Positions 4,837 to 43,426 are shown, numbered from the stretch's first letter. The stretch: DNA of 64,000 nucleotides from Cyanophora paradoxa CCMP329 (GCA_004431415.1 QPMI01000682.1:84248-148247); one strand, 5' to 3'. Program-made: numbers and translations. Notes: generated from the letters alone by a model not told the origin.

Positions 4837-5050
4837 CTTACTGGAAATGGACAGTAGGCACTGGAATAATCGAAGTAGGCACTTTTCAATTGAGGTTAGG
4901 CACTTTTAATTGACGTTAGGCACTTAGGCACCTTTCCTGGAAACTCTCTATAAAAAATAAAATCAACGTTTTGAAAAACGCGACTTAACCTTTTTAAGAC
5001 TTCTTTCTTTCTCTCGATTCAAGAGTGCCTAACTGCCTACAAGTGCCTAC
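4837..5050. promoter_or_regulatory. Putative replication origin cassette, iteron type I (TAGGCAC)
   Basis: CTTACTGGAAATGG box, five direct TAGGCAC at 4855/4876/4897/4917/4925, AT-rich spacer, then three inverted (G)TGCCTA at about 5025/5034/5043; immediately downstream of the primase-helicase gene. Confidence 0.6.
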
Positions 5051-5093
5051 AAAAAATGATGCGATTTCAGAGATGTGATCCAAGAGCACCACA

Positions 5094-5405
5094 ATGACCA
5101 CATTCTCAAAAGAAGATTTCGCCCGACTCAATCATGAATGCTATGGATCTGATCCAGTTCTGACAGATGCAGAGCAAAGAAAAAAAGTGCTTCGGTTGAT
5201 CTTGGAGAAAGGAGGATGTAAATATGATCAGATGCCCAGGCATTTCAGAAAGAAATTAGATAGATACTGCGAAAATGGTAGAGGTCACCAGTGTGCAAAT
5301 GATTTCGAGGAAATGAGAGCGGGGCAGGGTCGTCATGATGTGAACCATGCAAGAAAGCGACTTCAAGATAAACTTTCAAAACGCGTTCAAAACGCCCGAA
5401 AATAA
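5094..5405 (+). CDS. Hypothetical basic protein
   Basis: 103-aa ATG ORF preceded by AAAAAATGA. Confidence 0.55.
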   Translation: MTTFSKEDFARLNHECYGSDPVLTDAEQRKKVLRLILEKGGCKYDQMPRHFRKKLDRYCENGRGHQCANDFEEMRAGQGRHDVNHARKRLQDKLSKRVQNARK

Positions 5406-5426
5406 TATGTTCCCTTAAAGTAAAAG

Positions 5427-5876
5427 ATGCCCCGCCAATCCAATAGAATCATCAAAGAAAAGAAAAACGAAATACTCGGTCTTTTAGGAACCCTTTTAGT
5501 CACTGGTGATATTACAGAATTCGAATATGATCGCCAGGCAGCAATCCTGGATAGGAGACCAAGGTTATCTCAACTCACAGAAATTACAAATCGCCTCTAT
5601 GATCGTTTTGAGAAAATGGAGGAATTCAGGGATGAAGGTTTAAGGTTGGGAGCGATTGCACCGGAGATTGAAGATGGGGAAGCAATGAACAAAGCATATT
5701 CTTGGTTGACCTATCGAGCCAGAGGGGAGGTTATCCAAGATGGGATTGAATTCTTGGAGAGAATTGCACCCACTCTACCTCAGAGACTCAGACAGAAACT
5801 CCAAGACCTGCGAGCAATTAAAACTCGGTTGACCTTCATTTGTAAATTGAGACAGTTACAGATTGGATCGAATTGA
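5427..5876 (+). CDS. Probable N-terminal (terminal protein) part of the pPolB gene, separated by a local duplication
   Basis: The ORF terminates inside a 49-bp duplicate of the start of the downstream pPolB ORF, which itself lacks an ATG start (GTG). Confidence 0.5.
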   Translation: MPRQSNRIIKEKKNEILGLLGTLLVTGDITEFEYDRQAAILDRRPRLSQLTEITNRLYDRFEKMEEFRDEGLRLGAIAPEIEDGEAMNKAYSWLTYRARGEVIQDGIEFLERIAPTLPQRLRQKLQDLRAIKTRLTFICKLRQLQIGSN

Positions 5877-5949
5877 GATGCTAAGAGTGGTAATAATGTG
5901 GACAGTTACAGATTGGATCGAATTGAGATGCTAAGAGTGGTAATAATGT
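5851..5949 (+). repeat. Perfect 49-bp tandem duplication
   Basis: 5851-5899 is identical to 5901-5949 (GACAGTTACAGATTGGATCGAATTGAGATGCTAAGAGTGGTAATAATGT). Confidence 0.95.
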
Positions 5950-8624
5950 CCTATGCTCCTGTGGGTGGTTGCTTCTTCTCAACACCTGAGTGGATTGGAT
6001 CAAAGAGAGCAACTGTGAATGTGAAGAATATTGATGGTCAAGACTGCTTCAAGTATGCAATCTTGGCTTACCTGCACCGAAATGATATTAATAAACACAA
6101 GAGCAATGAACCCAACCAGTATAGAAGATGGTTAAACGAACTCAATTTCGAAGGCATCCAGTTTCCAGTTGCCTGTGATGCAGAGGTTATTGATCGATTT
6201 GAGGAGCAGAACCCTGAACTCTCAATCAACATTTATGGGGCAGATAATACTGCACAATGCTTCTATCCTCTCCACCAATCCAGCAACCCTAGGAGAAAGA
6301 CCAAGATTAACCTTTTATTAATCGAAAACGAAGAGGATGATAGAGGGCATTATATCACCATCATGTCTCTGAGTCGACTCCTGAAAACCACCTTTGATAA
6401 AGCCCATGATGGTCGCATTTATTATTGTGAGACCTGTCTGTCTCGTTTCAGAACTCAGGAGAAGCTGGATGTACATATAGAAGCGAATCGCTGCATTGAT
6501 TGGAGGGAGAGCAAAGGTAAATGCCCGAAATCTGGAAGTCACATTGCATTTGGGCTTCAACATCTTCGCAAAACTGTGTGGCTTCCCACTATCTGCTATG
6601 TGAAAATGGATAGTCACTCGGTTCCAATTGATGAGAACCGCAGTAAGAGAGAGGTAAAATCGGTTTCTCTAACAGTTGTGATGGGGGATGAGGTGATCTC
6701 TCATTATTTCGAGGGATCAGATCCACTTGGTGCTCTTTTTACCACTCTCACAGAGATCAGACCCCAAGTAGTTCGCACTCTATTCACCAATATTCCCATG
6801 CATCCACTCACAGAGGAGCAGAAAGCACAATACAAGATAACTAAACACTGTTATATCTGTGCAGAACGATTTACCCATGAGAACTTCCCAGTGAGAGACC
6901 ATTGTCATCAATCAGGAGCTTTTATTGGAAAAGCATGCCGAAACTGCAACCTCCACAGGAGAATCTCCAAACAAACCAAGGTAGCAATTGTGGTGGATCA
7001 CATGGATGAATGTGGACACGAAATATTCCGCAAAATTGCACAGCAAGATGATAAACTTCGTGTTGAGATCCTGAGCAAGAATTTCGATCAATACCTCTCT
7101 CTGCAATGGGGCATGTGGAAATTCATAGATGCTTCGCACTTCATGGACTTCCAGGCAGTGGATGCAAGTGATCTAATGGGTAAATTCCAGAAATTCCGAG
7201 AGTTGGCGTTTTCCCAATATGGATTAGATCCTGCCCATTATGTTTCGGCTCCTGGATTATCCTGGGATGCAATGCTAATTTACACCAGAGCAAAGATCGA
7301 GCAGATCAGTGATGTAGGGCAGTACGAATTTATTGAGAGGGCAATTCGAGGTGGGTTTGCTACAATGCCTACTCGATATGCAAAGGTGGAAAACCCAGAT
7401 GACCATATAGTTCTCTTGGATGCAAATAATCTGTATGGTTATGCTCTCAGTCAAGAACTGCCCATTGGAGATTTTCGTTGGGAAGATGTCACAGAGGCAC
7501 TTAAAGAGACCTCTGGACGAAGTGCTTTCATTGAAGTTGACCTGGAATACCCACAAACTCTCACAGATCATTACGATTTTCCACTTGTAGTGAATAAAGA
7601 GCAAATCACTACCGAAATGCTGGGTGAGTATCAACAAAACCTACTGGATATCACAGGTGAGAAGATAAGCAAAGACCCCAAACTCACAGCAACATTCTCA
7701 CCCAAAAATAACTATGTCATCTCCCAACCTCTCTTGGTCTATCTTGTGAGCAAAGGTATTATAATTAAGAAGGTTCACAGGGTTCTCTCATTTGCAACCT
7801 CTGCATTCATGAAGAGTTATATTGATCTAAATACGAAACTGAGGCGCCAATCTGTCACCAGATTCGAGTCTGACTTCTTTAAATTAATGAACAATGCAAT
7901 CTATGGTAAATGCCTTGAATCATGCAGGGGTCGATCTGTGGTAAAGATTGCTAACAGTGAGAAACTCTGCAAGAAATATGCTGCAAGTCCACTCATCAAG
8001 GCAACCAATGCATTAAACGAAAATGCTGTTGCCTTTGAGATGTACTCAAAGCATGTTCACTTAGATAAACCAGTTGCAATCGGGGCTTTTGTGCTGGATT
8101 TCGCGAAACTCCATAACAGCAGGTTCTTTTATGATGTGGTGAGGAGAACTTGGGAAACAGCTGAGCTACTATTCCATGATACAGATTCTTTCTGTCTAAT
8201 GCTTCATACCAATGATCTTAATAATGAGATGAAGCGAATTTCGGAACACCTGGATTGCAGTAATTATGATCCCTCCCACCCTCTCTTTGATAGGAGCAAT
8301 CGCTTGATTCCAGGTAAATATAAAAACGAGTTTCCCAATGCAAAGATTGTGGAGTATGTAGGTCTGAGATCGAAACTCTATGCTTTCAGAACTGAGACCT
8401 TTGATAAAATAAAGATGTCTGGTACTTCCTCCAAAGAGGTTCACTTTGATGATTTCAAGAGATGCCTGTTTGAAGGCATCACCAAAACAGTAGCAGTAGT
8501 AAACAAGCGAAGACAAGACCACAACCTATATGATTTGGAGAGCAGAAGGGTGGCTCTAAACCAACTCGATAGCAAAAGGAAGATATTAGACGATGGAATT
8601 CACAGCATTCCATTTGGGCTCTAA
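5898..8624 (+). CDS. polB: Protein-primed family B DNA polymerase with vOTU-like protease domain, C2H2 finger and endonuclease VII-like insert
   Basis: Motifs LLDANNLYG, KLMNNAIYGK, HDTDS and RSKLY; NVKNIDGQDCF...GHY dyad; CETC...H finger; CYIC...RDHCH...G...C..CN EndoVII motif. Confidence 0.93.
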   Translation: MDSYRLDRIEMLRVVIMSYAPVGGCFFSTPEWIGSKRATVNVKNIDGQDCFKYAILAYLHRNDINKHKSNEPNQYRRWLNELNFEGIQFPVACDAEVIDRFEEQNPELSINIYGADNTAQCFYPLHQSSNPRRKTKINLLLIENEEDDRGHYITIMSLSRLLKTTFDKAHDGRIYYCETCLSRFRTQEKLDVHIEANRCIDWRESKGKCPKSGSHIAFGLQHLRKTVWLPTICYVKMDSHSVPIDENRSKREVKSVSLTVVMGDEVISHYFEGSDPLGALFTTLTEIRPQVVRTLFTNIPMHPLTEEQKAQYKITKHCYICAERFTHENFPVRDHCHQSGAFIGKACRNCNLHRRISKQTKVAIVVDHMDECGHEIFRKIAQQDDKLRVEILSKNFDQYLSLQWGMWKFIDASHFMDFQAVDASDLMGKFQKFRELAFSQYGLDPAHYVSAPGLSWDAMLIYTRAKIEQISDVGQYEFIERAIRGGFATMPTRYAKVENPDDHIVLLDANNLYGYALSQELPIGDFRWEDVTEALKETSGRSAFIEVDLEYPQTLTDHYDFPLVVNKEQITTEMLGEYQQNLLDITGEKISKDPKLTATFSPKNNYVISQPLLVYLVSKGIIIKKVHRVLSFATSAFMKSYIDLNTKLRRQSVTRFESDFFKLMNNAIYGKCLESCRGRSVVKIANSEKLCKKYAASPLIKATNALNENAVAFEMYSKHVHLDKPVAIGAFVLDFAKLHNSRFFYDVVRRTWETAELLFHDTDSFCLMLHTNDLNNEMKRISEHLDCSNYDPSHPLFDRSNRLIPGKYKNEFPNAKIVEYVGLRSKLYAFRTETFDKIKMSGTSSKEVHFDDFKRCLFEGITKTVAVVNKRRQDHNLYDLESRRVALNQLDSKRKILDDGIHSIPFGL

Positions 8625-8806
8625 TCTACTTCATTAATCTTTCTTTTCTTTGGTTTCGCTCTCCAAGAAGTAATAAACCGCGAATTAAATGCAGCAGCCA
8701 AATACATCTTAATCCAGGGTCATTGGGCTCGATTGCAAAATAGTTTGGAATTGTGTTCTCTTTCCACACAGACTCTTGCATTTATTATATGAGAGATAAG
8801 GTAAAG

Positions 8807-10207
8807 ATGCCTTCCACACAAATAGGATTGAGACAACCACCAAGAATTGTGAGAAAAGAGGCAATTGAAGATCGAGGGAATATCCTACCTATCACAGTTC
8901 CAGTGGAAGAGAAAAGCAGTCGAATATTGAAAAGATCAGAGATGGTCAAGCAATTAATCCCAGAGACCCTCCCAGCTGAGACAGCACCAAAAGAGTCGAA
9001 GATTGCTAAGAAGTTCTATGATCCCAGGACAGGCTACAAGGGATTCACAGCAATGAGACAGGAACTACCAGAAGAGAACTACAAGAAGATGAGAGAATGG
9101 TATGATAAACAGGAGGTTGTCCAAATTAATGCACCCACTCTATCTCGAAAGAGAGATCCCATGATTCCAATTAGGCAACCCCTTGATACATATGTGATTG
9201 ATCTGCTCTTCTTTCCTGCATACAAAAAGCAGAATGATGGTTATGATACATTTATGAGTGCAATGGAATCAACCCTAAGAACTGGGTTCATAATTCCAAT
9301 GAGAGACAAGAGTGCTCTAACTACACTTGCAGCATTCAAGCAACTTGAACAGAGAGTCCCCAGACCAATTGTTCGCATTCAGAGTGACAGTGGAAGCGAA
9401 TTTACCAATGTGTTATTCACAGATTATCTGGGAACCAAATTCATTGAGCATCAACTTAGTGATGTTGCAGATCACAGAACCCAAGGTCGAATTGAAGCCT
9501 TTAACAGACAGATCAAGAGATTGATCACAAACCACTGCATCGCAAATAATACTGCACGATTTTTTGATGTGTTGGGTGATATTGAGTATAACTATAATAA
9601 TACCATTCACTCTGCAACCAAAAGAAAACCAGCAGAGACCACAGAAGCCCACTACAAAGAGATAGTGAATATGGAGGATCAGAGATTCAAGAAATCGATT
9701 GAGTATCTTGATGCCCTGAAACCTGGTATGTTTGTGAGAGTGAAAGTTGAAAAGAACCCATTTGCAAAGCAAGGGGTTAATTGGTCTCGAATTGTTTATA
9801 GTGTGGAGGGCAGAGAGGGCTTCAAGTTCAGAATCAGAAGTCCCAGTGGTGAGATAGTTGATGGTAGATTCGCTTTTCATGAACTGCTGCCCATTAAAGG
9901 TGTTGAGTATCATGAAACTCCCACAGTGGATGCCCTTGAACATGCAAAGGAGGAAGCCAGGGTTGATTCTGCAATCAGAAAGGAGGGCATAGAAAAAGCA
10001 AGTGAAGTACCAAAAGAGCCCCTCACAGAAGCAAGAGCACAAAAGAAGGGTAGAGTAGAGAAAGAATTAAAGAAGTTGACCATAGCAGGAACCCAGAAAT
10101 TATCAGAAGTCAACAGTCAGAGGTGGTATAATGACTTTTCAACCACCAAGGAAACATATACTGCACCCCAAACTCGATTTAATTTACGAAGTGGTCAAAG
10201 GAAATAG
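8807..10207 (+). CDS. int: Retroviral-like (rve) DDE integrase of Polinton type
   Basis: VIDLLF, QSDSGSEF and GRIEAFNR catalytic motifs; YNNTIHSAT; C-terminal GMFVRV...NWS...FHEL SH3-like domain; ATG preceded by GTAAAG. Confidence 0.93.
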   Translation: MPSTQIGLRQPPRIVRKEAIEDRGNILPITVPVEEKSSRILKRSEMVKQLIPETLPAETAPKESKIAKKFYDPRTGYKGFTAMRQELPEENYKKMREWYDKQEVVQINAPTLSRKRDPMIPIRQPLDTYVIDLLFFPAYKKQNDGYDTFMSAMESTLRTGFIIPMRDKSALTTLAAFKQLEQRVPRPIVRIQSDSGSEFTNVLFTDYLGTKFIEHQLSDVADHRTQGRIEAFNRQIKRLITNHCIANNTARFFDVLGDIEYNYNNTIHSATKRKPAETTEAHYKEIVNMEDQRFKKSIEYLDALKPGMFVRVKVEKNPFAKQGVNWSRIVYSVEGREGFKFRIRSPSGEIVDGRFAFHELLPIKGVEYHETPTVDALEHAKEEARVDSAIRKEGIEKASEVPKEPLTEARAQKKGRVEKELKKLTIAGTQKLSEVNSQRWYNDFSTTKETYTAPQTRFNLRSGQRK

Positions 10208-10208
10208 A

Positions 10209-10451
10209 TCAGCAGCGCTTCCGAAATCTCTTAGACCTCTGGCGAATTTTCCTCATTTGTCTGTCTTTTTCAATAATTTCCAAGAAGAAAGTTTCAAGGT
10301 TTGAGACCAGCTGGTAATTGTAAACAAAGAACAGTCTCACATGCTCTGGCTGTGACATGAAGAAATTGTAATAGAAAGCAGTTTTGAAATCATGGATCCA
10401 GTCTGATTGGGCAGCATGGATGATAGCAGGGTCTTGGTAGATGGGATCCAT
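10209..10451 (-). CDS. Small hypothetical protein (MDPIYQDP...)
   Basis: 80-aa ATG ORF 30 bp downstream of an AAAAATTGACAA motif on the minus strand. Confidence 0.55.
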   Translation of the reverse strand: MDPIYQDPAIIHAAQSDWIHDFKTAFYYNFFMSQPEHVRLFFVYNYQLVSNLETFFLEIIEKDRQMRKIRQRSKRFRKRC

Positions 10452-10591
10452 AGCAGAAGTTGAGAGAATCCAGAAAATCCTTGTCAATTTTTTATTTTGT
10501 AAGTGCCCGATCACGACGAATCCTGATTGGCGCTATCGTGGCGATTCCGAATCTGTTTTCAGATTTAAAAACGGAGCACCTGGTAATAAAA

Positions 10592-10607
10592 TACAGTAGC
10601 TACTGTA
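10592..10607. terminator. Perfect 16-bp palindrome downstream of the patatin gene
   Basis: TACAGTAGCTACTGTA. Confidence 0.4.
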
Positions 10608-10672
10608 AAAATCGCCATAATGTGGGCGAAGATACAGAAGCCACTGTATCATACATCAGGACTTCTGAAATA

Positions 10673-12214
10673 TTATACACTTCGAATAAATGCACCTGTC
10701 ACATCAACTCTCATAGTTGGGGTGTTGATGTATACAAGTGGATAAATTCGAATATACCTTGTCCTCAGAGGGTAGCCAATATAGAAAACGTCTCTAATAG
10801 AGGTGGGATACCCAGAACTGTATGAGACATCACCACTGTTGTGGGCATTATTGATAGTTTCACACATGAACACTCTATTGACACCTTCATACTTGATAAA
10901 TGACCAAGAAATCCCATCTTGTGATGTTGCAACATTGAAGGTCTTCACAAAGGCATTTGTCACACCAGAACCATATGCTATAATAGATGCAACCTCAAAT
11001 ATGTATGGGAAGGTTACTTGGAGATACTCAGTGGGGACACTCCATATCCCATCAGGAGCAGATGCATTTGCTTCCCAACCTGTCAAGGAAGGTCTTGATT
11101 TAAATGCCTCCCTTCCAATTTTTGATGATGAAGCAGTGAATGCACCATCTGATAGAAGATACCAGTTAGCATCAATTGGAGGTATGCTATTCAGAGTGGA
11201 TGATATATAGAACCTTGCAGGGTTCTTGATTTCGTAATTTGCAACCAGTAAATCACAGAGTCTATCAATCATCACAGTGTTTGCTGCTATGTACATTTCG
11301 GTTGCATCTATCATATCTGGGATCTTAGAGGTATCATCCAGAGAGTTTACTATGGTCTTTGGAAGTGGGACAGAGAGTCTATAATATCTTGCATATCCTT
11401 GATCATCATTATATGGGAGAAACTCTTGCATCTTTTCCAGTGCTGAGAGTTCACTTGCAGCCATCAACATATTGATTAATGGACTTCCAGAGGTCGAAGC
11501 AATCCAAGAGAGGATGCCCCAGCTGTTCACATCTTCATAAGAGTAACCCACATTTGGAGCATCTGTTTCATTGACTTCACCACAGGATATACTTATCACT
11601 ATAATATCATCATCATCATCATAGATCTTCTTAGCATGACTGTAACCACAGACACTGGGATTGTTGTTACCTGAGATTGCACCATCAATTAGAGACATCC
11701 CATCATAGTTCACAGGTGAGAAATATGTTGGAGCAGCAGAGGTGGATCTTGCAGCAATCTTGCTGGGGATGGATTTGTAGGAGTTATCATTGGTGATAAA
11801 AATGGGCTTCATACTCACAGTGTCAAAACTTGTGATCACTACATCTTTGAGAGAGTCTTGAATGAGAGACTCACCAGTAACAGTGAGAATGGCTGTCTCC
11901 AATGGGGTCACATCATACTTGGTGTTGAAGAGTGCATTATCAATAATATTTCGGGGATTTGCAAAGATTAAAGGCAGTTGATTGAGATAAGTGGAATGCA
12001 AATCGGTTGCTGTGAGTTTAGGTTCGTTTGGAAATTCGGGATTTTTCACATTGAGACCAATCGCAATTATCCCACCAGTGGATGTTCCACTCACCAGGTC
12101 AACAAGATCTATGACTCTTTTTCCTGTTCGAGTTTCGATTTCTTTTAGCAATCTCGTAATAATTATACCACGAGCTCCCCCACCTGAAAGACTGAGAATT
12201 ACACGAAGGGGCAT
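10673..12214 (-). CDS. Patatin-like phospholipase with C-terminal F5/8 type C (discoidin) domain
   Basis: GGGARG, GTSTG, SAAPTYF and DGA patatin motifs; EYLQVTF...SQDGISW...RYIRIYP...MRVDV discoidin pattern. Confidence 0.92.
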   Translation of the reverse strand: MPLRVILSLSGGGARGIIITRLLKEIETRTGKRVIDLVDLVSGTSTGGIIAIGLNVKNPEFPNEPKLTATDLHSTYLNQLPLIFANPRNIIDNALFNTKYDVTPLETAILTVTGESLIQDSLKDVVITSFDTVSMKPIFITNDNSYKSIPSKIAARSTSAAPTYFSPVNYDGMSLIDGAISGNNNPSVCGYSHAKKIYDDDDDIIVISISCGEVNETDAPNVGYSYEDVNSWGILSWIASTSGSPLINMLMAASELSALEKMQEFLPYNDDQGYARYYRLSVPLPKTIVNSLDDTSKIPDMIDATEMYIAANTVMIDRLCDLLVANYEIKNPARFYISSTLNSIPPIDANWYLLSDGAFTASSSKIGREAFKSRPSLTGWEANASAPDGIWSVPTEYLQVTFPYIFEVASIIAYGSGVTNAFVKTFNVATSQDGISWSFIKYEGVNRVFMCETINNAHNSGDVSYSSGYPTSIRDVFYIGYPLRTRYIRIYPLVYINTPTMRVDVTGAFIRSV

Positions 12215-12263
12215 CTTTACTTAACTCAAATTTAATAAATCTCTATAAGTAGAGTAAACAGGG

Positions 12264-15200: not shown

Positions 15201-15572
15201 CAAGAGAAATGTGGGTCATGGATCCTCGGACAATTCAAAGGTTACTAAGCTGGCTCCTCAATACATGCTTGATAACCTGATTAGAAAAGGGAGACATGAA
15301 ATGACAATTGCGAATCCTCAAATTGGGGCAGTTCAGCAAGGCAAAACCATAGCATTACATTAAATTGGAGTCCTGCCTTTGCATCTGCTCCATCTGTTGT
15401 TGTAACATTGCAGGGACTACCTGCAACAAATGTGGAAATCGATTATAAAATAGGAATATCAAGCAACTCAACAACCTCTACCACAATCAATCTTGTTATT
15501 TGGGCAGCAGGATGGGTAACCATTCAACCACAGTGGCTTCAAATTGCAATCCATTGGATAGCATCAGCATAA
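12264..15572 (+). CDS. Large fibre protein: acidic repeats, HxH...ITDF phage-tail-like repeats, H-type-lectin-like tip (frameshifts near 14113 and 15230-15300)
   Basis: ORFs 12264-14117 and 14117-15280 are contiguous in the segment C homologue (CCC vs CC); about 9 AHTHxKxxITDF repeats; unannotated final frame ...FASAPSVVVTLQ...IHWIASA* ends at 15572. Confidence 0.8.
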
Positions 15573-15597
15573 TAAAGATTCTCACACTATTACAAAG

Positions 15598-16668: not shown

Positions 16669-16690
16669 TATTATCCACATAATGTAAAGT

Positions 16691-17710: not shown

Positions 17711-17732
17711 TTTTCTTGTAGTAGATTAAGGA

Positions 17733-20229: not shown

Positions 20230-20631
20230 ATGAATACTCATCGAGGTTTCCATGTGATGCTGGATTACAAATTCAGAACCCAATTAGCAGTAGGAGTGGA
20301 AAACTTGGAGACAACAACCCGGTGGTTAATGCAGTTCTTACAAACTATTATTCAAGAGCAAGGTATTCGAGTAGTTCACAAGCATTGCGAGATTTTCGAT
20401 GGTGGTATTTCTCCTCCTGGTTTTGCAATGGTTCTTCTGCTGGATGAGAGCCATTGCACTGCTCATTGTTACTCAAATGAAGGTATGTTGGCGATTGATA
20501 TATTCAGTTGTGGTTTAGAAGCAGAGAGAAAAACCACGAGAGTATCTCATGAGATAGATGAGAGAATAACAGGTGTGTTTTCAGGGTTGGAGAAATCGGA
20601 GAAACATAGAGTATTGCGATTTCCGAGTTAG
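20230..20631 (+). CDS. speD: S-adenosylmethionine decarboxylase proenzyme (prokaryotic SpeD-like, pyruvoyl-dependent)
   Basis: G.H...D N-terminus and LLDESHCTAHCY...DIFSCG self-cleavage motif. Confidence 0.88.
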   Translation: MNTHRGFHVMLDYKFRTQLAVGVENLETTTRWLMQFLQTIIQEQGIRVVHKHCEIFDGGISPPGFAMVLLLDESHCTAHCYSNEGMLAIDIFSCGLEAERKTTRVSHEIDERITGVFSGLEKSEKHRVLRFPS

Positions 20632-20663
20632 TTGACACTGAGAAATTCAGAATTTCAGATGGT

Positions 20664-20891
20664 CTTACTGAAAATGGTGTAGTAGGCACTTTAAAAATCG
20701 AAGTAGGCACTTTTTAATTGAAGTTAGGCACTTTTAATTGACGTTAGGCACTTAGGCACCTTTTCTGGAAATTCTCTATAAAAAATAAAATCAACGTTTT
20801 GAAAAACACAAGTTGATGTATTTGGGACTTCTTTTTAATTCTCGATTAAGAAGTGCCTAACCGCCTAAACCGCCTACCAAAGATGCCTACT
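20664..20891. promoter_or_regulatory. Putative origin cassette, iteron type I (second copy)
   Basis: CTTACTGAAAATGGT box; TAGGCAC at 20683/20704/20725/20745/20753 with the same spacing as 4855-4925; inverted GCCTA repeats at 20853-20890. Confidence 0.6.
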
Positions 20892-20892
20892 T

Positions 20893-21348
20893 CGATTGAT
20901 CGATCGGAGACCATGCAACTCTGTGACAATTTTTCGAAGAGAAAATGCCCATCCCCAATCTTCTCAATTGTTCAATTGGAGACCATTCAACTCTGTGACA
21001 CTTTTTCGGTGCAAAAATGTACATCCACAATCTCATCGATTGTTTAATTGGACATAATGCAGTACCGATATATTCCAATAGAAAATCTCGCAATCTAATC
21101 GATTGTTTAATTGGAGATAATGCAACTCTGTGACACTTTTTCGGTGCAAAAATGTACATCAGCAATCTCATCGATTGTTCAATTGGACATAATGCAGTAC
21201 CGATATATTCCAATAGAAAATCTCGCAATCTAATCGATTGTTTAATTGGAGATAATGCAACTCTGTGACACTTTTTCGGTGCAAATATGTACATCAGCAA
21301 TCTCATCGATTGTTCAATTGGACACAATGCAACTCTGTGACACTTTTT
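20893..21348. repeat. Subterminal composite tandem array of 72-bp and 63-bp units
   Basis: CTCTGTGACA recurs at 20919, 20991, 21126, 21261 and 21333 (steps 72, 135, 135, 72); all units share the core CAATCTNATCGATTGTTYAATTGGA. Confidence 0.9.
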
Positions 21349-21678: not shown

Positions 21679-21773
21679 ACACATATTGAAAAACGAATTT
21701 AAATCCAGAGTGAATCGAGATCGCGAAGCGATCGAGATGAACGAGGGATTTAAATTCGTTTTTCAATATGTGT
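21679..21773. repeat. Terminal cassette of segment A: perfect 28-bp inverted repeat
   Basis: ACACATATTGAAAAACGAATTTAAATCC (21679-21706) and its reverse complement (21746-21773). Confidence 0.9.
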
Positions 21774-24243: not shown

Positions 24244-25172
24244 ATGATTCGGCTGGTCAATATAGATAGCAGAGACCGATCAGATGGACAAATAGAAAAC
24301 TCCTACAAAGTTTCACTCACAACCCAGTGACCAAACCAAGAGAATGTCGAGTTTTGTATGCAGAGATCCCAACAGCATCTATAACTCCATTGGAACAGAC
24401 CACCTTCTTGTCAGATTCTACTACCAAGGCATCTCTGAAACCAAGCAGGTCTTCCTTCTCCCAAGTGGTTACATAAATCAAGGTCATTTCGGGGTCACCA
24501 CTCCATATAATTATGGTCTGAATTTCACATTTACTGGAGCAACAATCTCACATATGCATTCAAGGTCTACTACAACCCTACCTCCTACAAATTGGAGTTT
24601 TACAGTAATGTTCAATTCGATATGGTTGCATCTACACAGAGATTGGGTAAACTTCTTGGTGTGAGTTCAGTGGAGTGGGTGGCTTCCACTGAACAGATTT
24701 ACGATTTCCCAGAGTCTGCAAGGTCTTTATATGCCCCGAGAATTTCCTTTATTTCGCAGGAATACCAATCACCCCAAACCATCCCCAATGGGGAATCACA
24801 TTCACAGGATATGAATTCGAGGCATCTCGCTTAAACTACAAGTTAGAAGCTTCCAAGATGACAGATATGAATGCAGAACAGTATTTATACATGCACATTA
24901 AAGAACTCTCCCCATTTGCTACAAACCACAATAATGTCCCACAATCTCAACCACAGAATCAAGGAGCGATTCTCAGATTGCAATTAAGTAAAGATATTGG
25001 ACAGTATGTTTATCACAGTGGAGAGCACAGTGAATACATAAAAATAACCGATCGAAACCTTGTGATTAGAGAGTTAACAGTTGAGTTTCGCGATTATTAT
25101 GGTGATCTTGTAGATATGAATGGAATTGACAACTCATTCCAGTTAGAGTTCTTGGCTATTGGTAATGATTAA
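24244..25172 (+). pseudogene. Minor capsid protein 2, frameshifted (true lesions or sequencing errors)
   Basis: MIRLVNIDSRDRS start; pieces in three or more frames are homologous to the intact 28224-29156. Confidence 0.75.
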
Positions 25173-25422
25173 ACCGATCCTGATAGAAGAACTCCCCATC
25201 TGTCTCGAAAATATTAAGAATGGGACTCTTTCGATCTTCTGTATACCATCGGCGAATTGTCTTATCCCATTTAGCACCATTCTTTTTCAAGAATCTACAA
25301 AGAGTTGATCTCCTTGTAATTCGCAATCCCATCTCTTGAAAGATCTCATAATGATCTTGTATTCTTTTCACAATCAAGATGTAAGTCCCATGGAAATTGT
25401 GATATTGCTGGTTAATCGGCAT
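25156..25422 (-). CDS. Small protein with DUF5710-like K.GAKWD...WY motif
   Basis: LKKNGAKWDKTIRRWY; ATG at 25422 preceded by TGTAAAG and an AAAAAATGACAA motif. Confidence 0.55.
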   Translation of the reverse strand: MPINQQYHNFHGTYILIVKRIQDHYEIFQEMGLRITRRSTLCRFLKKNGAKWDKTIRRWYTEDRKSPILNIFETDGEFFYQDRFNHYQ

Positions 25423-25469
25423 GTTTCCTTTACAGCATGATGGGAAATCGTTTGTCATTTTTTGGCGAA

Positions 25470-25565
25470 ACGAGAGTATCTCATGAGATAGATGAGAGAA
25501 TAACAGGTGTGTTTTCAGGGTTGGAGAAATCGGAGAAACATAGAGTATTGCGATTTCCGAGTTAC
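25470..25565 (+). pseudogene. speD: 3' remnant of AdoMetDC gene
   Basis: 25470-25612 matches 20536-20678 with a single mismatch (stop TAG to TAC). Confidence 0.9.
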
Positions 25566-25597
25566 TTGACACTGAGAAATTCAGAATTTCAGATGGT

Positions 25598-25772
25598 CTT
25601 ACTGAAAATGGTCAGATAATCGGGTGTGACACCTATTTAATTGACTGTGACGCCTCTTTAATTGACTGTGACGCCTGTGACGCCTGTGACGCCTACTTTC
25701 AAACTTTCTAAAATTTTCAAAAATGACAGACTTCTGAAAACAGCCGTCACAGCCGTCACAGGCGTCACACCC
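25598..25772. promoter_or_regulatory. Putative origin cassette, iteron type II (TGTGACRCC)
   Basis: CTTACTGAAAATGGT box; direct repeats at 25625/25646/25667/25676/25685; AT spacer; three inverted G(G/C)CGTCACA at 25743-25769. Confidence 0.6.
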
Positions 25773-25908
25773 AATTAAAAATGGAATCTATCTCTCTTAC
25801 TGGGATATTCAAAAATATATTCTTGTCTTACTGAAATCCGTCTTGTGACACCTCTGACACCTACAAAACACTATCCATTAATCCACCTTTTCGAAAATGC
25901 GAAGTTGT

Positions 25909-26061
25909 CTTACTGGAAATGGTCTGCAATTTCGCTGTGACACCTAATTTAATTGAGTGTGACGCCTGTGACGCCTGTGACACCTACTTTCAAACTTTTT
26001 AAAATTTTCAAAAATGACAGACTTCTGAAAACAGGCGTCACAGCCGTCACAGGCGTCACAG
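25909..26061. promoter_or_regulatory. Putative origin cassette, iteron type II (second copy)
   Basis: CTTACTGGAAATGGT box; direct repeats at 25936/25958/25967/25976; three inverted repeats at 26034-26060. Confidence 0.6.
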
Positions 26062-26174
26062 ACATTCTGCCCCCCTTACTACTCTTCTCAAAAACAGAAA
26101 TATATCTTACTGAATATCATTTGAATACTATCTGTCACACTTGATTTCATTTATTCTGTTTTATAGAACATCTG

Positions 26175-26380
26175 CAATCTAATCGATTGATCAATTGGAG
26201 ACCATGCAACTCTGTGACACTTTTTCGGTGCAAAAATGTAAATCCGCAATCTCATCGATTGTTTAATTGGACGTGATGCAGTTCCGATATATTCCAATAG
26301 AAAATCGCGCAATCTCTTCAATTGTTTAATTGGACATAATGCAACTCTGTGACACTTTTTCGGTGCAAATATGTACATCA
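26175..26380. repeat. Subterminal 72/63/72-bp array (shorter version of 20893-21348)
   Basis: Same units in the same orientation. Confidence 0.9.
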
Positions 26381-26382
26381 AT

Positions 26383-26443
26383 ATTAGTTTTTCAATATGT
26401 GTGGCATTAAACGAGGGATTTAAATTAGTTTTTCAATATGTGT
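26383..26443. repeat. Right terminus of segment B, with partial tandem duplication
   Basis: ATTAGTTTTTCAATATGTGT-GGCA occurs twice (ending 26402 and 26443); the second copy matches the A terminus including AACGAGGGATTTAAATT. Confidence 0.85.
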
Positions 26444-35002: not shown

Positions 35003-35021
35003 CTATTTCTTTATTATAAAG

Positions 35022-36092: not shown

Positions 36093-36114
36093 TATTGTTA
36101 CTTTAAAGTAAAGA

Positions 36115-37347: not shown

Positions 37348-37368
37348 TTTTCTTTTGATAGAGTAAGA

Positions 37369-37632
37369 ATGTCAAATATTTACCAAGTAGTTCTAACTGA
37401 TACCGAAAAGTTGGGAATGGAATATTGCGCTGCATCTGTTCAGGATTGGATTGATAATGCTGCCCACAACAGGGCAAGAATTGCAATTGATGAGATTGTT
37501 CAGAAAGAGATCCATTCATGTATATCAACAGGCTTTCAGATACCAACCTCAAAGGAAGCAATTGTGTTACAGGCATTCCAAAGGGGAACTGTTAAAAAGG
37601 CGATTGAATATAACAATGTCACAGAAGAGTAG
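37369..37632 (+). CDS. Small fibre-associated protein (copy 2)
   Basis: Homologue of 17733-17996. Confidence 0.75.
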   Translation: MSNIYQVVLTDTEKLGMEYCAASVQDWIDNAAHNRARIAIDEIVQKEIHSCISTGFQIPTSKEAIVLQAFQRGTVKKAIEYNNVTEE

Positions 37633-37670
37633 TGAACATTATTTTTCTTTCCTTCTTAGTAAAAGAAGCA

Positions 37671-38516
37671 ATGGGTGAATATAATCGAGTTCAACTGCCT
37701 ATATATTCCCTTGGATCCCCTGCAATGCACTTTCGCCAGCATGAAGTTAATGATGAGGTTCGTGGTTTAGAATCCACAGAGAGACCCAACTCCAATGGCA
37801 ACTCCTTTGATAAAAATTCGATTATTCGAGTTAAAGAGCTGAGAGCTGATAACAATTCTGGTGTGGTTAAAACAACTCGACTTCTTGTCACAAATGCAAA
37901 CTTCTTCCAACCTACTAATGGAGGTCCTGATGCTTACAGTGTTGATCTGAAAGCCCTTGGTTTCGATAAGAATTCTGCTGCTGTTACTGTGAGATCAGGA
38001 GGAGCATTTATTGGGGGTGGCTGCAGAGTTTCAGGTCAGCTTTCATCCTCAATTTCATATAATGATGTCCCAGATACTCTAGAGCAAAATGTTGAAGACC
38101 CCCAACGAATTCGATTATATATACCAGTTGCACAACAGCCACTAATTCAGTTTTACCAAGGTTATACTGTCACACTTGAAAACTCTGAATTGATTGAAGG
38201 AACCAAAAGAGTAATGAGAGGGCTGGTCATTCCTTCTGCAATGCTTTCTTTATGTAGAGCCAACAATAACCAGCCAGGTCACAGATACAATTTCAGTGTT
38301 CAAGGATATGATCATTTTGGCACAGGGTTCTGTGTTTATAATAACAATTTCACCTATGATCTGTTTGTTACAGATATTGGAAAATATACAATTACAGTTA
38401 TGGGTATCAGAACAGATATAGCTGCCGTCTCAGCTCTTAGAGGTGTTACTCCTGATACTCTTTCTCAAACAGGGTTTTACCAAGAGCCAGATGTAATTGA
38501 TGACCCAACCCCATAA
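37671..38516 (+). CDS. Fibre-family paralog 3 (copy 2, intact)
   Basis: ATG after AGTAAAAGAAGCA; homologue of 18035-18889. Confidence 0.8.
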   Translation: MGEYNRVQLPIYSLGSPAMHFRQHEVNDEVRGLESTERPNSNGNSFDKNSIIRVKELRADNNSGVVKTTRLLVTNANFFQPTNGGPDAYSVDLKALGFDKNSAAVTVRSGGAFIGGGCRVSGQLSSSISYNDVPDTLEQNVEDPQRIRLYIPVAQQPLIQFYQGYTVTLENSELIEGTKRVMRGLVIPSAMLSLCRANNNQPGHRYNFSVQGYDHFGTGFCVYNNNFTYDLFVTDIGKYTITVMGIRTDIAAVSALRGVTPDTLSQTGFYQEPDVIDDPTP

Positions 38517-38539
38517 AAGATATATCCCTTTAATGTAAA

Positions 38540-39373
38540 ATGGCTGAGCAACCCCCACTTGAACGAATAATTACACCTCAGCTTTCATTAGCTGCACCAG
38601 CAAACCATGTTCTGCAACATGCTACCTTTGATGATGTGGAAGGTCTCCAATCCACAGAGGTCCAACCTACAATGAACACCTTTGGTTCCACCCACAAGCT
38701 GAGATTACAGGAACTCAGATGTGATAAAAATAATGGAATAGTTAAGACAACTAAGCTACTTGTCACAAATGCAAACTTTTCTGCTCATTTTGGAGACCCA
38801 GATAGCTATGGAGATCCTCTGTCTACTTATTCTTTTGAATCTAGGTCGGGAGCTATTAACTGCAAATCGGGGGGAGCTTATATTGGTGATGGTCTTAGGG
38901 TTGGTGGGGCTGTTGGAGCGCCTTTATTTGTGAATGATCAACCCAATCCCATTGATCCCAACACAAGAATTCGAACCTATGTCCCCAGCATGAATGCCCC
39001 ATACATTATAAAGATATTCCCCATTGTTGTAAATGAACAAACAGCAGTAGTAGACTCCCTTGTTGAGATTGGTGACCACTACAAGGTTGTTGTAGATATT
39101 CCACCAGATGTATATGCTGTATGCCAAGTTGAAGGTGGAACTCCCAACTTTGCAGTAGTGATCACCCCATATGATAACTTTGGAATTGCTTATCATGGAG
39201 TCAATTTTGGTTTGGAAGACTATCAGTTTCTGGTCAGAGCCACCAAGTTTGGTATCTACAAGTGTGTGATGTTTGCAGAGAGAACCGATTTTATTGCAAA
39301 GCAGAATACCTATGCTGAATACTATGGCACAAATCGATATTTCCCCATTTTTGGGCAGGATACTGCTCCATAA
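38540..39373 (+). CDS. Fibre-family paralog 4 (copy 2)
   Basis: Homologue of 18913-19743. Confidence 0.8.
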   Translation: MAEQPPLERIITPQLSLAAPANHVLQHATFDDVEGLQSTEVQPTMNTFGSTHKLRLQELRCDKNNGIVKTTKLLVTNANFSAHFGDPDSYGDPLSTYSFESRSGAINCKSGGAYIGDGLRVGGAVGAPLFVNDQPNPIDPNTRIRTYVPSMNAPYIIKIFPIVVNEQTAVVDSLVEIGDHYKVVVDIPPDVYAVCQVEGGTPNFAVVITPYDNFGIAYHGVNFGLEDYQFLVRATKFGIYKCVMFAERTDFIAKQNTYAEYYGTNRYFPIFGQDTAP

Positions 39374-39395
39374 GAATATTGGTTATATATAGAGT

Positions 39396-39668
39396 ATGGA
39401 TAGTAAAACAAAAAAGTTTATTGATGCTGCTATGACAGTCCATGGTAAAGATAAATTCGATTACAGTGAGACACATTACATCAAAGCTCAAGAGAAAGTA
39501 TCTGTTAGATGTTTGCAGTGTAATAAGGTGATCCTTACCTATCCATTTAATCATGTGAAGGGATCAGGATGCAGGGAATGCAACAAAAAGCACTCTCAGG
39601 CTTATAGGAAAAGGGCAACTTCATCAATCACAGTGGAATATAGAGATGTTTGCATTAGGTTCGATTAG
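39396..39668 (+). CDS. DUF723-like zinc-ribbon protein (copy 2)
   Basis: Homologue of 19771-20043. Confidence 0.75.
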   Translation: MDSKTKKFIDAAMTVHGKDKFDYSETHYIKAQEKVSVRCLQCNKVILTYPFNHVKGSGCRECNKKHSQAYRKRATSSITVEYRDVCIRFD

Positions 39669-39923
39669 GTTTAATTAATTTTTCTAAGGTATTCTTAATG
39701 GAGACTAAATACAGAGGCTTTCATGTTATGCTTGATTACAAAGCTAAATCAGCTATTGCAACAGGACATGAGCATGTTAGCTTCCTAGGTAATTGGATTA
39801 TGGGAACCCTTGAACAAGCTATATTGAGACAAGGTATTAGGATTGTTCATAAACACTGTGAGATATTTGATGGCAAAGTATCACCTCCTGGTTTTGCATT
39901 GGTTCTGCTATTAGATGAAAGCG

Positions 39924-42016
39924 GGACTTTCCGGTACCCGGAAAGTTCACGACCGCAAGGTCGTCGCGCCGCATAGGCGTCCCTGCTGCTCGTCAGAGCC
40001 TCTCCCGATGTCCACTGCATCTCTGGTGCGTGCCGGACCGCGGCGGTGCCCGCTGCGACGGTCGGCCGACACTTTCCCCAGATTCCCGGCATCGGCTCGC
40101 TGGGCGTCACACGCATCGGGCACCTGAATCATGGTGCGAACCATGCCCATGCGCGCCGGACGGCGTCGCCGCGCCGAATGACGCTGAAAAGTGTCTCAGG
40201 CTCCTTGCACGCCGAAAGGCGCATCTGGACCGCCCTCGGGCATCTGAGTCGTGACGAAAGCCATCACTACGTCTACGGTGCGCGCCGGAGAGCACCGCCG
40301 CGCCGACTTCGCACGCTGATACGTGCCCCAGGCCCGCCATTCTCGTTGCGAAGCTTTCGTTTGTGCACCGCAAAGCGCTATTCATTGTCGCCAGTCCCCT
40401 GCTTTGCCCCGCGGAGGCGCCGCCGCCGCGTGCCGCTCCGCCGGCGCGCCTTGCCCAGACTTCGCCAATCTCACCCGCCGCGGCAACAGCTTTGTCTGCT
40501 CCAATGACTACGCCTTCCTCTGCCTCGTCGGTCTGTTCCGCGCGCCCAGCCGGCACGTCGCTTGCTCACCTTGTCCGTTAGATGTCGGCATTCCCCAATT
40601 CCGGGGCGGACGGCGTCATACCTGCGCCTGGCACGCCTTCACATTCGGCTCTATCGCCTTCTTGTGCGCCCCGCCCGCCTGGCGCGTCCACTGCCTAACC
40701 GACGCACACTGCCCCGCCGCGCCCTCACTTTGTCTGTCCGCTAGGGCTCCCCCGGACGCGCCGTCTCACAGCTGCCGCTTGCTGGTCCGCATCCCTCGCG
40801 CTCTGTCGGCTCTCAGCTGATCCCCTCGCAGCGCGAGCTCGATCGCTTCGGCCGCCGATGCGGCAGTTGACGCCGCGCCCCGCCGCCGCACTCTGCCTGT
40901 GAGCTCGAGGGCCCGCCGCCCGCGAGTCCCCGCTCGCAGCTGATCTCCCCCAGCCGCCGGTGCCGCCAGCGCCGCGCCCCGCCCCGCATCCCGCCCGCCG
41001 GGCCCTGGTCCGCCGCCCGCGAGTTATCTCCCAGCCCTCAGCTGATCCTCTAGATCTTGCAGCGCAGCTCAACCACACCGAACGCCGGCGCCGCACCGCC
41101 ACCGTCACCGCGCCCCGACGCCGCATCCTGCCCTCGGGCTCGAAGTTCGCCCCCCGCGAGTCCTCTCAGCTCTCAGCTGCTCACAATCCGCACAGCGCGA
41201 GCTCTTTCTACCTTGGCGCGAACGTGTTCACCTCGCCGCCGCCGCCGCCTCCTGCCGCTGCTCCCTCCCCCGCCCCTCACGTTCCTCCTCTTGCCGCCTC
41301 CCCGCGCACCCGCCCCGCCGGCCCTTCGGGCCCCGGGCCCTGCGGCGGGCCCAAGGCACCCTCTCTCGCGCTGGTTCGCGGGCTACCCCGCACTTTCGGA
41401 GGCGCCGCTGCCGTCTCCCCGCTCGCCCGTCGCCTTGCCCCGCCGGCCCGCCGGCCCCTCGGGCGCGTGCGGCCGTCGCCGTCGCCTCGCTTTGCCACCC
41501 CCGCCCCGTTCTCGCGGCGGCCGCCGCCCCGCTCACCCGTCGCCTTGCTCCGCCACCCCGCAGGCCCGCCGCCCCTCGGGTGCGTGCGGCCGTCGCCGTC
41601 GCCTCGCTTTGCCACCCCCGCCCTGTTCTCGCGGCGGCCGCCGCCCGCTCACCCGTCGCCTTGCTCCGCCACCCCGCAGGCCCGCCGCCCCCGGGCGCGT
41701 GCGGCCGTCGCCGTCGCCTCGCTTTGCCACCCCCGCCCCGCCCGCGCGGAGGCCGCTGCCTTCCATCCCGCCGGCAACGTGCGTGCGGCTGCCGCCGTGC
41801 CTGCACCGCGGCAGCCGCCGCCCTTTCTAGAGCCACGGGCCCAGACCTGTGGCCGACTTTCTGAGCAGCTTGCTCTCTCCTGTTCCCTTTTCCGTTAGAA
41901 GGACTAGACTTGAACAAAATTGTTCTCCTGCCTGGGCCCGCCCCTCTGTCTGAACGAAGGCTTTTTTGAAATTTTTTGCCTTCGACCTGCAAAGTAGACT
42001 AGGCCTGTAGTTAGGA

Positions 42017-42056
<40 letters not shown>

Positions 42057-42633
42057 CGGGCTAGGACGAGGGTGCGCGCATAGGTAAGGACGCGCCCGCT
42101 CAGGACCCCACGGCGGCGACGGGAGCGGGAGGAGGCCAAGCTGGAGGAGACTCGAACGCGGCGTCGGCAGGGCCCAGCCGGGCCCGTAAGGCCGAGGTTT
42201 AGGAGCTTCGGCTCCCCACGTTCGGCCAGCGACGACCTGCTCCCAACACCCCGCCGCACCCGTGGACTTGGGCGGCGCGATTCAAGACCCAGCGCAACAA
42301 CCTGAACCTACCCTCCCATCTCTCCCTCCCCACCTCCTCTCTCAACTCCCCCCCTCACGAGCGACCCGCGGCCATGTTTTAGAACCAGCAAGAGGGCATC
42401 TAGGACCGTGTAGCTCAGCATGCCTACGCCTCCTACTTGAGGACCGGCGCATATTATGTGTTGGGGGCGACCTGACGGCTACAGCTTCAGCATCAGCTCG
42501 ACTACGACAACAAGCTATAGAACCGAGCTCGCCCTTTTCCTCAGTGTAGCTTGGCTTTCCCAGTATCCGGTAGGCGCGGAGCGGGGGACTGCTGTCATGT
42601 GTGTACGAATGGAGCAGACTTTCCAAAAAAAAA
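39924..42633 (+). mobile_element. 2.7-kb GC-rich non-autonomous retroposed element
   Basis: 20-bp TSD TCTGCTATTAGATGAAAGCG (39904-39923 and 42634-42653); A9 tail; long G tract at ~42018-42056; no recognisable enzyme ORF. Confidence 0.88.
41405..41745. repeat. About three copies of a 115-117-bp GC-rich tandem repeat
   Basis: GCGTGCGGCCGTCGCCGTCGCCTCGCTTTGCCACCCCCGCCC at 41465, 41582 and 41697. Confidence 0.85.
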
Positions 42634-42884
42634 TCTGCTATTAGATGAAAGCGATTGTACAGCTCATTGTTATTCCAATGAAGGCATGTTAGCAATTGAT
42701 ATATTCAGTTGTGGTAAAGAAGCTCAGCATAAAACACAATCAGTAGCAGATGAGATCGATAAAACAATGAATTTCCTCACATTTGAGAAGACTGAGAGAC
42801 ATAAACATGATAGATTTCCGTTTTGATAGGTTTCTATAATGATAATCAGGGCGATTTACCTTTTTTATTACAATAACATTGATC

Positions 42885-42931
42885 AGCTACTGTTACAAAA
42901 GGATATAATATATCCTTTTCCTACAGTAGCT
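42885..42931. terminator. Hairpin downstream of AdoMetDC copy 2
   Basis: AGCTACTGT..AAAAGGATATA-A-TATATCCTTTT..ACAGTAGCT. Confidence 0.5.
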
Positions 42932-43117
42932 TTCTACAATGATTATTTTCCAGATTCCGGACATTTTTTACGATAGAATTCTACTGTATGATGAAGCCAA
43001 AATATGAATACACCCTAGATTTAGCAATGTCAAATCATTGGAATAATGTTCGATTTCCTAACACTTAAACCTCAGAATCTCCCCTAGATTCCCCCTATTA
43101 TATAATATTTATATTAA

Positions 43118-43426
43118 AGTGGACTCAAGGTTGACTCATATTAATCGTAAAAGTAGTAATAGTATATGGATTTTGTTACGAATTCAATGCAAGGGTTGAC
43201 TAAGTGGGTTGAGTTGACTCAAATTTCACAGGAAATAACAATGAATCAGAGTATAAAATGCATTTTTTGAATCAACTACACCAACTAACACTGAGATTTT
43301 CACAATATATGAGGTCATTACTGAATATGGTTTGTGTCACAGGTGTCACAGGTTTATCCCAGCTCGGACCCTATAAAGAGTGATTTTCCCTCTCGATGGG
43401 ATGGACCTGTGACACCTGTGACACCC
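43118..43426. promoter_or_regulatory. Putative origin cassettes of segment C (GTTGAC repeats, then flipped type II iterons)
   Basis: GGTTGACT-like direct repeats at 43120-43220 with inverted CAACT at 43272-43287; CATTACTGAATATGGT box at 43316-43331; perfect 20-bp inverted repeat 43334-43353/43405-43424 made of TGTGACACC units. Confidence 0.5.

Follow-up and report, generated by a model that had tools for sequence, protein, structure and literature searches.

We find that a family of integrated Polinton-like viruses (PLVs) carries short repeat cassettes that are probably helicase-loading origins of the SaPI/PICI kind, with two repeat types built on one frame and likely recombined between family members. 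Five of these cassettes lie in the 64-kb stretch of DNA that we analysed (the window). This kind of origin is already known in bacteria. In SaPIs, repeats of 5 or 6 bases face in opposite directions on the two sides of an AT-rich centre, immediately downstream of rep, and are bound by a winged helix (PMC9371898, available text). What is new here is the occurrence of two repeat types on one frame within one family, in subterminal positions.

Repeat cassettes in three virus-like segments

Bases 1 to ~43,870 of the window are gene-dense and 40% GC, one GC-rich insert excepted; the remainder is ~65% GC and contains LINE-type endonuclease and reverse transcriptase frames. The low-GC part consists of three related virus-like segments (A, B and C; Table 1), whose shared genes are 75-83% alike. 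Element A encodes an A32 ATPase, a 798-aa helicase fusion, a patatin-discoidin protein, fibre-like proteins and an AdoMet decarboxylase, together with a probable protein-primed family B polymerase (pPolB) and a probable rve integrase. The packaging ATPase of the window matches Pfam PF04665 (E 3e-10). Patatin-discoidin fusions have been reported from glaucophyte PLVs (PMC12220804, available text). The 456-aa gene that opens B probably encodes the major capsid protein, a weak-to-moderate call that draws on an Atlas score of 0.98 to clusters with Capsid_N in 12-18%; its only close relative, at 59%, is an EukProt entry named in the style of the glaucophyte Cyanophora. With the patatin-discoidin fusion, this relative makes a protist host likely. 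Single-protein scans of viral contigs returned nothing closely related to the helicase or capsid gene. The pairing of a double jelly-roll capsid with an A32 ATPase, by which Polinton-like viruses are recognized, is present in the window, with the capsid call again weak to moderate. We rejected PICI as the element class because capsid-like, A32 ATPase and integrase genes occur here in a LINE-bearing eukaryotic context. The termini found in the window are likely right ends only, of A and B, and the element family is multi-copy in public sequencing runs of the same organism. An Rfam search of bases 1-44,000 gave 0 matches.

The first-pass annotation had described five cassettes that open with one box, and this description holds. 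The box CTTACTGRAAATGG has four exact matches (4837, 20664, 25598 and 25909) and a fifth, in C, with two mismatches (43317); five matches were reached in 0 of 100 shuffles. A strict detector (at least two direct 6-mers, a 35-220-bp spacer and at least two inverted copies, exact repeats required) returned exactly these five cassettes in bases 1-44,000 and none in 44,000-64,000. On 50 shuffles it gave two weak matches, and 0 of 50 had at least five repeats. A chance origin of the cassettes was rejected by these controls.

The type I word, TAGGCAC, occurs at 4855/4876/4897/4917/4925 and at 20683/20704/20725/20745/20753, with the annotated spacing of 21, 21, 20 and 8 in both cassettes. The annotated type II spacing (21, 21, 9, 9) is correct for the word TGTGACRCC in type II cassette 1 (25625/25646/25667/25676/25685) but not for type II cassette 2, which is shorter than first described and has direct units at 25936/25958/25967/25976 (22, 9, 9). 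Three or four inverted copies follow the direct repeats in each cassette. The AT-rich spacer attributed to the four A and B cassettes was borne out (69-78% AT versus 60% in the element), so that these four have the AT-rich centre of a SaPI/PICI origin and C, at 51% AT, lacks it. The type II unit in C does have flipped polarity, and a GTTGA array (43130-43213) accompanies it, as had been noted. All five cassettes have at least two opposite-facing repeats per side, those of C pointing outward and not inward. Cassette C has probably decayed or is only part of an origin, and its GTTGA array is possibly a decayed third repeat type.

Types I and II have in common the 14-bp box, an TTTAATTGA linker and a 21-bp register, which points to a single ancestral cassette; being homologous in their frame, they would have diverged within the family. 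The non-coding frame common to A, B and C is ~44 bp long, with C identical at 33 of 44 positions. In other public runs of this organism, short-read contigs include both cassette types and span the cassette-to-array junction of type I (X1 record 2, X15 record 8) and of type II (X1 record 4). The two types are therefore real and no assembly artefact. Type II cassette 1 has a predicted hairpin (z -7.5). A cruciform as a common cassette feature was rejected, because the single-strand fold of type I cassette 2 beats shuffles only mildly (z -2.4).

Table 1. Features of the window, with positions counted from its first base.
Feature	Position	Strand	Remarks
Small 75-aa ORF ahead of helicase gene	1979..2206	+	Translation
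798-aa primase/polymerase-helicase	2394..4790	+	SF3/D5 ATPase; predicted C-terminal winged helix ~711-779
Type I cassette 1	4837..5049	+	Box, 5 direct TAGGCAC, 93-bp spacer (69% AT), 3 inverted copies; 47 bp past helicase stop
Probable protein-primed family B polymerase	5928..8624	+	Motifs by eye; Pfam gives a weak endonuclease VII match only
Probable rve integrase	8789..10207	+	Pfam E 0.002, under curated cut-off
AdoMet decarboxylase gene, element A	20230..20631	+	Pfam PF02675, E 6e-11; last 96 bp within 143-bp A/B tract
A copy of 143-bp tract	20536..20678	+	Last 44 bp are non-coding frame including box
Type I cassette 2	20664..20889	+	Subterminal, no gene behind; 85% identical to type I cassette 1
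Subterminal 72/135-bp array of A	20892..21348	+	5 units with TGTGACA; linker-like AATTGG word ahead in 4
Likely right end of A	21680..21773	.	Terminal motif as inverted pair; stop of B capsid gene comes next
B copy of 143-bp tract	25470..25612	+	Truncated AdoMet decarboxylase remnant, then frame and box
Type II cassette 1	25598..25769	+	Box, 5 direct TGTGACRCC, 49-bp spacer (76% AT), 3 inverted copies
Degenerate box half-sites and 2 decayed type II units	25796..25863	+	Between the two type II cassettes
Type II cassette 2	25909..26060	+	Box, 4 direct units, 49-bp spacer (78% AT), 3 inverted copies; 94% identical to type II cassette 1
Subterminal array of B	26163..26380	+	92% identical to A array
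Likely right end of B	26377..26443	+	2 direct terminal-motif copies; abuts truncated capsid gene of C
GTTGA array of C	43130..43277	.	4 direct copies and 1 inverted word; array at 43130-43213
Cassette C	43288..43425	+	Diverged frame/box, 2+2 type II units pointing outwards, 55-bp spacer, 51% AT

Helicase genes and their cassettes

One type I cassette lies directly behind the primase-helicase gene, as first described, starting 47 bp past its stop; the other four cassettes are subterminal, and the fact that they have no helicase gene beside them counts against the origin reading. We take the N-terminus of the 798-aa protein, from its motif, to be PolA-like (TVpol). An AlphaFold model (mean pLDDT 84.6) has a winged-helix topology at residues ~711-779, and a Foldseek search of the PDB with this model placed the SaPI5 primase-helicase first (7OLA, E 2.6e-16), followed by poxvirus D5 and ASFV PrimPol. 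By model and fold search, type I thus has a predicted SF3 helicase with a C-terminal winged helix as its cognate. A search for a type II helicase found none, and neither did one for short proteins resembling the helicase C-terminus. The 75-aa ORF ahead of the helicase gene ends in a motif that is presumably AT-hook-like and showed no sequence similarity to any of 113 ORFs located upstream in relatives.

Cassettes recur beside relatives of the helicase, with changing repeat words. Four scans yielded 200 loci, 180 with a full gene, which fall into 108 clusters (90% identity). In 35 of the 108 clusters, the helicase gene has a cassette within 1 kb (26 of the 77 in which both flanks reach at least 700 bp), and the repeat word changes from cluster to cluster among the 35. 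Thirty cassettes lie within 300 bp of helicase gene ends (~49 per 100 kb) and none inside these genes. The 120 control loci had a background density of 2.3 per 100 kb, an overstated figure because this set (L031-L150) had been chosen by the type I pattern, and shuffled flanks had 0-1 of 108. Intergenic gaps touching the helicase gene contained a cassette in 31 of 163 cases, versus 15 of 210 other gaps (P = 0.0007), and the spacers were AT-richer than their own locus in 26 of 30. By the detector, 73 of the 108 clusters have no cassette within 1 kb, including an 18,343-bp contig (L311). Note that the cassette count may be low, because the detector needs exact repeats and the flanks are short. 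The box is absent beside every cassette of the 108 clusters. Among a family of ~24-kb viruses, cassettes 2-3 kb from the helicase gene are normal, once on both sides of it.

The same association is seen when the search starts from the repeat words. Scanning for two type II units in tandem returned 62 loci, 33 of which have the word at least twice per strand inside 300 bp. For 22 of these 33 two-sided arrays, the gene whose 3' end they adjoin is VapE-like, DUF5906 or D5_N; two more are at AAA_25 genes, as judged from scans of 32 selected neighbour proteins. Several loci are near-duplicates of one another, and the majority resemble phage contigs. Among 120 loci chosen by the type I word, VapE-like genes precede three two-sided arrays that have enough flank; the frame ahead of a fourth is cut off and unscanned. 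Since two-sided arrays sit at such genes, both repeat words act like helicase-linked sites elsewhere. The phage helicases with TAGGC arrays have mostly different wings.

Repeat similarity appears, modestly, to track the C-terminal winged helix of the helicase and not its ATPase. In Mantel tests on the D5-type set (14 rows), repeats correlated with the winged-helix helices (rho 0.25, P = 0.020), with a weak trend for the wing (P = 0.063), and were uncorrelated with TVpol or ATPase. In a second SF3 type (13 rows), they correlated with the wing only (rho 0.35, P = 0.011); both sets are small, and the P values of 0.020 and 0.011 fail Bonferroni correction over eight tests. With five distant rows added to the second type, the partial correlation for the wing was 0.28 (P = 0.0036). 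Four loci were left out beforehand: L202, L259 and L267 (whose weak 2+2 matches lie over 450 bp away from the gene) and L191 (close to L189). Distant rows L005, L223, L226, L239 and L241 were omitted in one run, and a partial P = 0.0002 for ATPase was disregarded as an artefact.

Individual loci illustrate this pairing. The L183 protein is ~31% identical to the 798-aa protein and is not its sister in the ATPase tree; the two have the wing letters YDKN and RG in common, and three cassettes of the type I word surround the helicase genes of the L183 locus. In its neighbours L181 and L185, both wing and word have changed. L186 has a D-x-N wing like that of the 798-aa protein, yet there is no TAGGC in its 6.6-kb locus, and the D-x-N motif may simply be ancestral. 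In the ~24-kb virus family, repeat letters and wing residues change in step, against a conserved spacer (by eye). Members with GGAC-type words (eight arrays, L262, L285) carry a small residue at one position of the wing. L260 and the L275/L280 pair carry a branched residue at that position, and their words are altered too, which makes two independent changes. Because word and winged helix change together, type I would be read by the 798-aa protein and type II by a family helicase encoded outside the window.

Probable exchange between segments and possible loss of genes

Segments A and B match over 143 bp with a single mismatch (20631/25565; 99.3%) and diverge from 20679/25613, the first base past the box. 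The first-pass annotation had them match, switch repeat type and rejoin, and took the cassettes to be exchanged as modules. The sharp left break stands to the base, as does the rejoining in the 72/135-bp array. But 96 bases of the tract belong to the AdoMet decarboxylase gene, whose 3' end they form and of which B has only a truncated remnant, and the array is only 92% identical. Differences number 1 in 143 in the left flank versus 17 in 219 in the right (Fisher P = 0.002). A single cassette swap is weakened on both counts, because the array flank is significantly more diverged than the left flank and because 96 of the 143 left-tract bases are a gene end. Such a swap is not required; one recent crossover plus an older exchange would fit at least as well. 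The simplest history would be a recent left-flank crossover that gave an A-like body a type II end, together with an earlier exchange, or homogenisation, on the side of the array. In that case the cassette would be bounded by exchanges on both sides, and was not necessarily transferred in one piece.

Five units of the A array carry the type II core TGTGACA, and the complete CTGTGACAC occurs in four, where chance predicts ~0.0004 full copies per unit, so element A is not purely type I. The A array units are 95% alike among themselves, above the 92% between the A and B arrays.

The first-pass annotation also spoke of segments devoid of replication genes, which here would be B and C. This is likely for C, where the patatin gene has lost its normal stop and reads into the end of the preceding gene over a 7-bp microhomology, a junction that suggests deletion of the block that carries A's replication genes. 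Three contigs of another run have a loose end with this junction. B passes from the patatin gene straight to the AdoMet decarboxylase remnant. For neither segment is the lack certain, as the left part of each element lies outside the window. Each segment starts at the likely right end of the preceding one: the A end abuts the stop of the B capsid gene, and the B end interrupts the C capsid gene. The abutting segments may thus be nested, with their left halves beyond the window.

The origin model, its alternatives and known systems

By analogy with SaPI biochemistry, the winged helix of a hexameric helicase would bind the repeats on each side, the AT-rich centre would open and the TVpol domain would then prime synthesis. 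One ancestral cassette would have given rise to types I and II and been copied to the subterminal site, and recombination in conserved flanks would have exchanged right ends, probably more than once. Elements with deletions, B and C among them, would have kept their cassettes and been copied in trans by a matching helicase. Possible roles for the box and linker are priming, bending or melting of the DNA, and binding of a second protein. There may be two replication modes, protein-primed from the element's ends and helicase-initiated internally. Against the origin reading, the element may do without an internal origin, because it encodes a probable protein-primed polymerase. The earlier proposal of helicase-specific origins is carried by the layout, the helicase-adjacent copy and the recurring pairing with changing words, and falls short in that no type II helicase was found. 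More tentatively, and with clear doubt on our part, there may be a replicon code in which several helicase-origin pairs share one frame, the exchange of right ends lets deleted satellite-like elements be copied by, or drain, the word-matched family helicase, and the wing predicts the word across TVpol-SF3 viruses.

Other explanations account for parts of these data. The working origin might be the helicase-adjacent cassette alone, the subterminal copies being decayed or acting as non-firing helicase sinks, like the auxiliary iteron arrays of plasmids. The flipped, AT-poorer cassette C fits this, as do the degenerate box and repeat remnants between the B cassettes, the single type II cores scattered in subterminal arrays (A included) and deletions inside the cassettes of other copies (joints 25843-25936 and 20691-20851). 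We nevertheless consider it unlikely, given that the TAGGC cores of the type I copies are 39/40 identical versus 130/160 elsewhere (Fisher P = 0.007), the subterminal cores having been kept while the rest drifted, and that cassettes at 2-3 kb are the norm in the ~24-kb family. We give little credence to sites for another element protein (integrase, packaging or recombinase), with the box as the crossover site behind the sharp breakpoint. Four of the five cassettes are subterminal, the box at 4837 is a weak inverted repeat (5-bp arms, 8-bp spacer) with the A/B breakpoint at the spacer end, and repeats bracketing replicase modules are taken as mobility signals in the available text of 10.64898/2026.10.13.758929. 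But the inverted-repeat arms are poor in the other boxes, there is no tyrosine recombinase among 21 scanned proteins, and the comparison ties the cassettes to SF3 helicase genes, both in eukaryotic viruses and in VapE-type contigs.

That the cassettes are promoters or operators, with regulator-bound repeats around a TATA-like core, seems to us very unlikely. Type I spacers do have a TATA-like word, type I cassette 1 ends 45 bp ahead of a 103-aa ORF, and 9 of 20 downstream cassettes of relatives have a same-strand ORF within 500 bp; type II spacers, however, lack such a word, four of the five window cassettes have no real gene behind them, and 4 of the relatives' 20 lie between convergent genes. 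We inspected 26 gene starts, and neither the 60 bp ahead of any of them nor the cassettes contain the giant-virus early promoter AAAATTGA. A reading of the linker as a Mimivirus-type early promoter was rejected. Recruitment of the D5 primase-helicase of a helper giant virus by the type II cassettes would explain why the window has no type II helicase; D5 proteins have the same fold, and some PLVs depend on giant viruses (10.1101/2022.07.28.501842, available text). It is nonetheless highly improbable, since type II has its box, linker and register in common with type I, which is tied to the element's own gene, and no search linked a giant-virus helicase to the type II word.

The helicase-loading origin model has its closest parallel in SaPIs and PICIs. 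These also have opposed short repeats and an AT-rich centre behind a gene for a fused primase-SF3 helicase with a C-terminal winged helix, and different elements there have different repeat words. In contrast, the window element is eukaryotic and integrated, has a PolA-like priming domain and a probable pPolB and integrase, and adds subterminal copies, 21-bp spaced outer repeats and a conserved linker and box, all known from sequence alone. In phage P4, the alpha protein reads short repeats at ori, and a second repeat site, crr, lies apart from the origin. P4 thus resembles our element in its multifunctional primase-helicase with short repeats and second repeat site, but it is a bacterial satellite with another primase domain and another repeat arrangement. 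In iteron plasmids, an initiator-repeat pair on a common backbone sets the specificity of incompatibility groups. Specificity by such a pair on one backbone is the likeness here; unlike those groups, our elements give no sign of copy-number coupling or exclusion, and the A array carries type II cores. The P4 alpha protein and its site are treated in PMC6092414, where the available text also describes the same origin layout, shown to be functional, in Gram-negative PICIs. In a 2026 cryo-EM preprint (10.64898/2026.10.17.759575, available text), wing strands read the repeat bases.

If the model is correct, it gives TVpol-SF3 PLVs and virophages a candidate replication start of a defined 150-220 bp with a predicted reader domain. 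It would likewise account for the multiplication of deleted copies in trans and for the exchange of replicase genes between viruses along with the matching start site. Types I and II on the same frame form a natural specificity control. The TVpol-SF3 and AEP-SF3 replicases of PLVs and virophages are described, in the available text of PMC12220804, PMC11296320 and 10.64898/2026.10.13.758929, with the same protein architecture, two replicase classes, tandem integration and repeats near replicases. An internal iteron origin, repeat-wing covariation or two origin types per family do not appear in that text, and PMC11296320 proposes the terminal inverted repeats as origin. We found no description of an internal iteron origin in PLVs or virophages in the literature covered (mostly outside subscription papers), including the available portions of PMC11296320, PMC10120064, PMC12220804, PMC11633385, PMC11788076, PMC13215967, 10.1101/2022.07.28.501842, 10.64898/2026.06.19.733378 and 10.64898/2026.10.13.758929. 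The "small repeat arrays" and "palindromic repeats" in Figure 6 of the last of these, as far as its available text goes, could be the same features as those described here.

Cassettes and repeat arrays at replication genes of relatives

Candidate iteron origins accompany relatives of the 798-aa TVpol-SF3 primase/polymerase-helicase on viral contigs. At locus L183, two TVpol-SF3 genes (68% identical to each other) lie in tandem; two cassettes with the type I word TAGGCAC follow one gene and a single such cassette follows the other. Behind the helicase gene of L181, the cassette is duplicated in tandem, resembling the cassette pair of the Polinton-like virus (PLV) segment B in the window.

Ten further loci (L260, L261, L264, L267, L269, L275, L279, L280, L286 and L295) belong to one virus family in which a spacer motif is conserved. 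Here, compound repeat arrays lie 2 to 3 kb upstream of the helicase gene, and this family is a suitable set for a covariation study. Two-sided repeat arrays also occur at the stop of a VapE-like gene in many probable phage contigs (L327, L332, L333, L347 and L357, among others), a recurrence that suggests a general way of calling the origins of such contigs.

Genes, segment ends and possible lesions in the window

The last gene of the PLV, encoding AdoMet decarboxylase, adjoins the cassette in all three related segments (A, B and C). In C, this gene is interrupted by a 2.7-kb insert of 69% GC, which has a 20-bp target-site duplication and an A-rich end and looks like a non-LTR retroelement.

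The likely terminal motif is doubled at the end of B. At the likely right end of A, it occurs as an inverted pair, with ~40 bp between the copies, which could form a terminal hairpin or represent a tiny separate element. A stretch of B containing a DUF5710 ORF may be a small insertion, because another contig lacks it. Where the 149-aa ORF is followed by the start of the polymerase ORF, 50 bp between the two are duplicated exactly and in tandem, which reflects either a lesion or an assembly error. An 8-kb inverted duplication (99.4%) contains a LINE in which many frames are broken; this duplication may be an assembly artefact of the fold-back type.

Coordinates of features in the window and on viral contigs
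Feature	Location	Position
AdoMet decarboxylase gene	A	20230-20631
Insert	C	39924-42633
Inverted pair of likely terminal motif	window	21680-21773
DUF5710 ORF	B	25156-25458
Joint of DUF5710 stretch	B	25171-25487
50-bp tandem duplication	window	5851-5949
Inverted duplication	window	43875-60098
Tandem TVpol-SF3 genes	L183	223-6513
Tandem cassette duplication	L181	6345-6756
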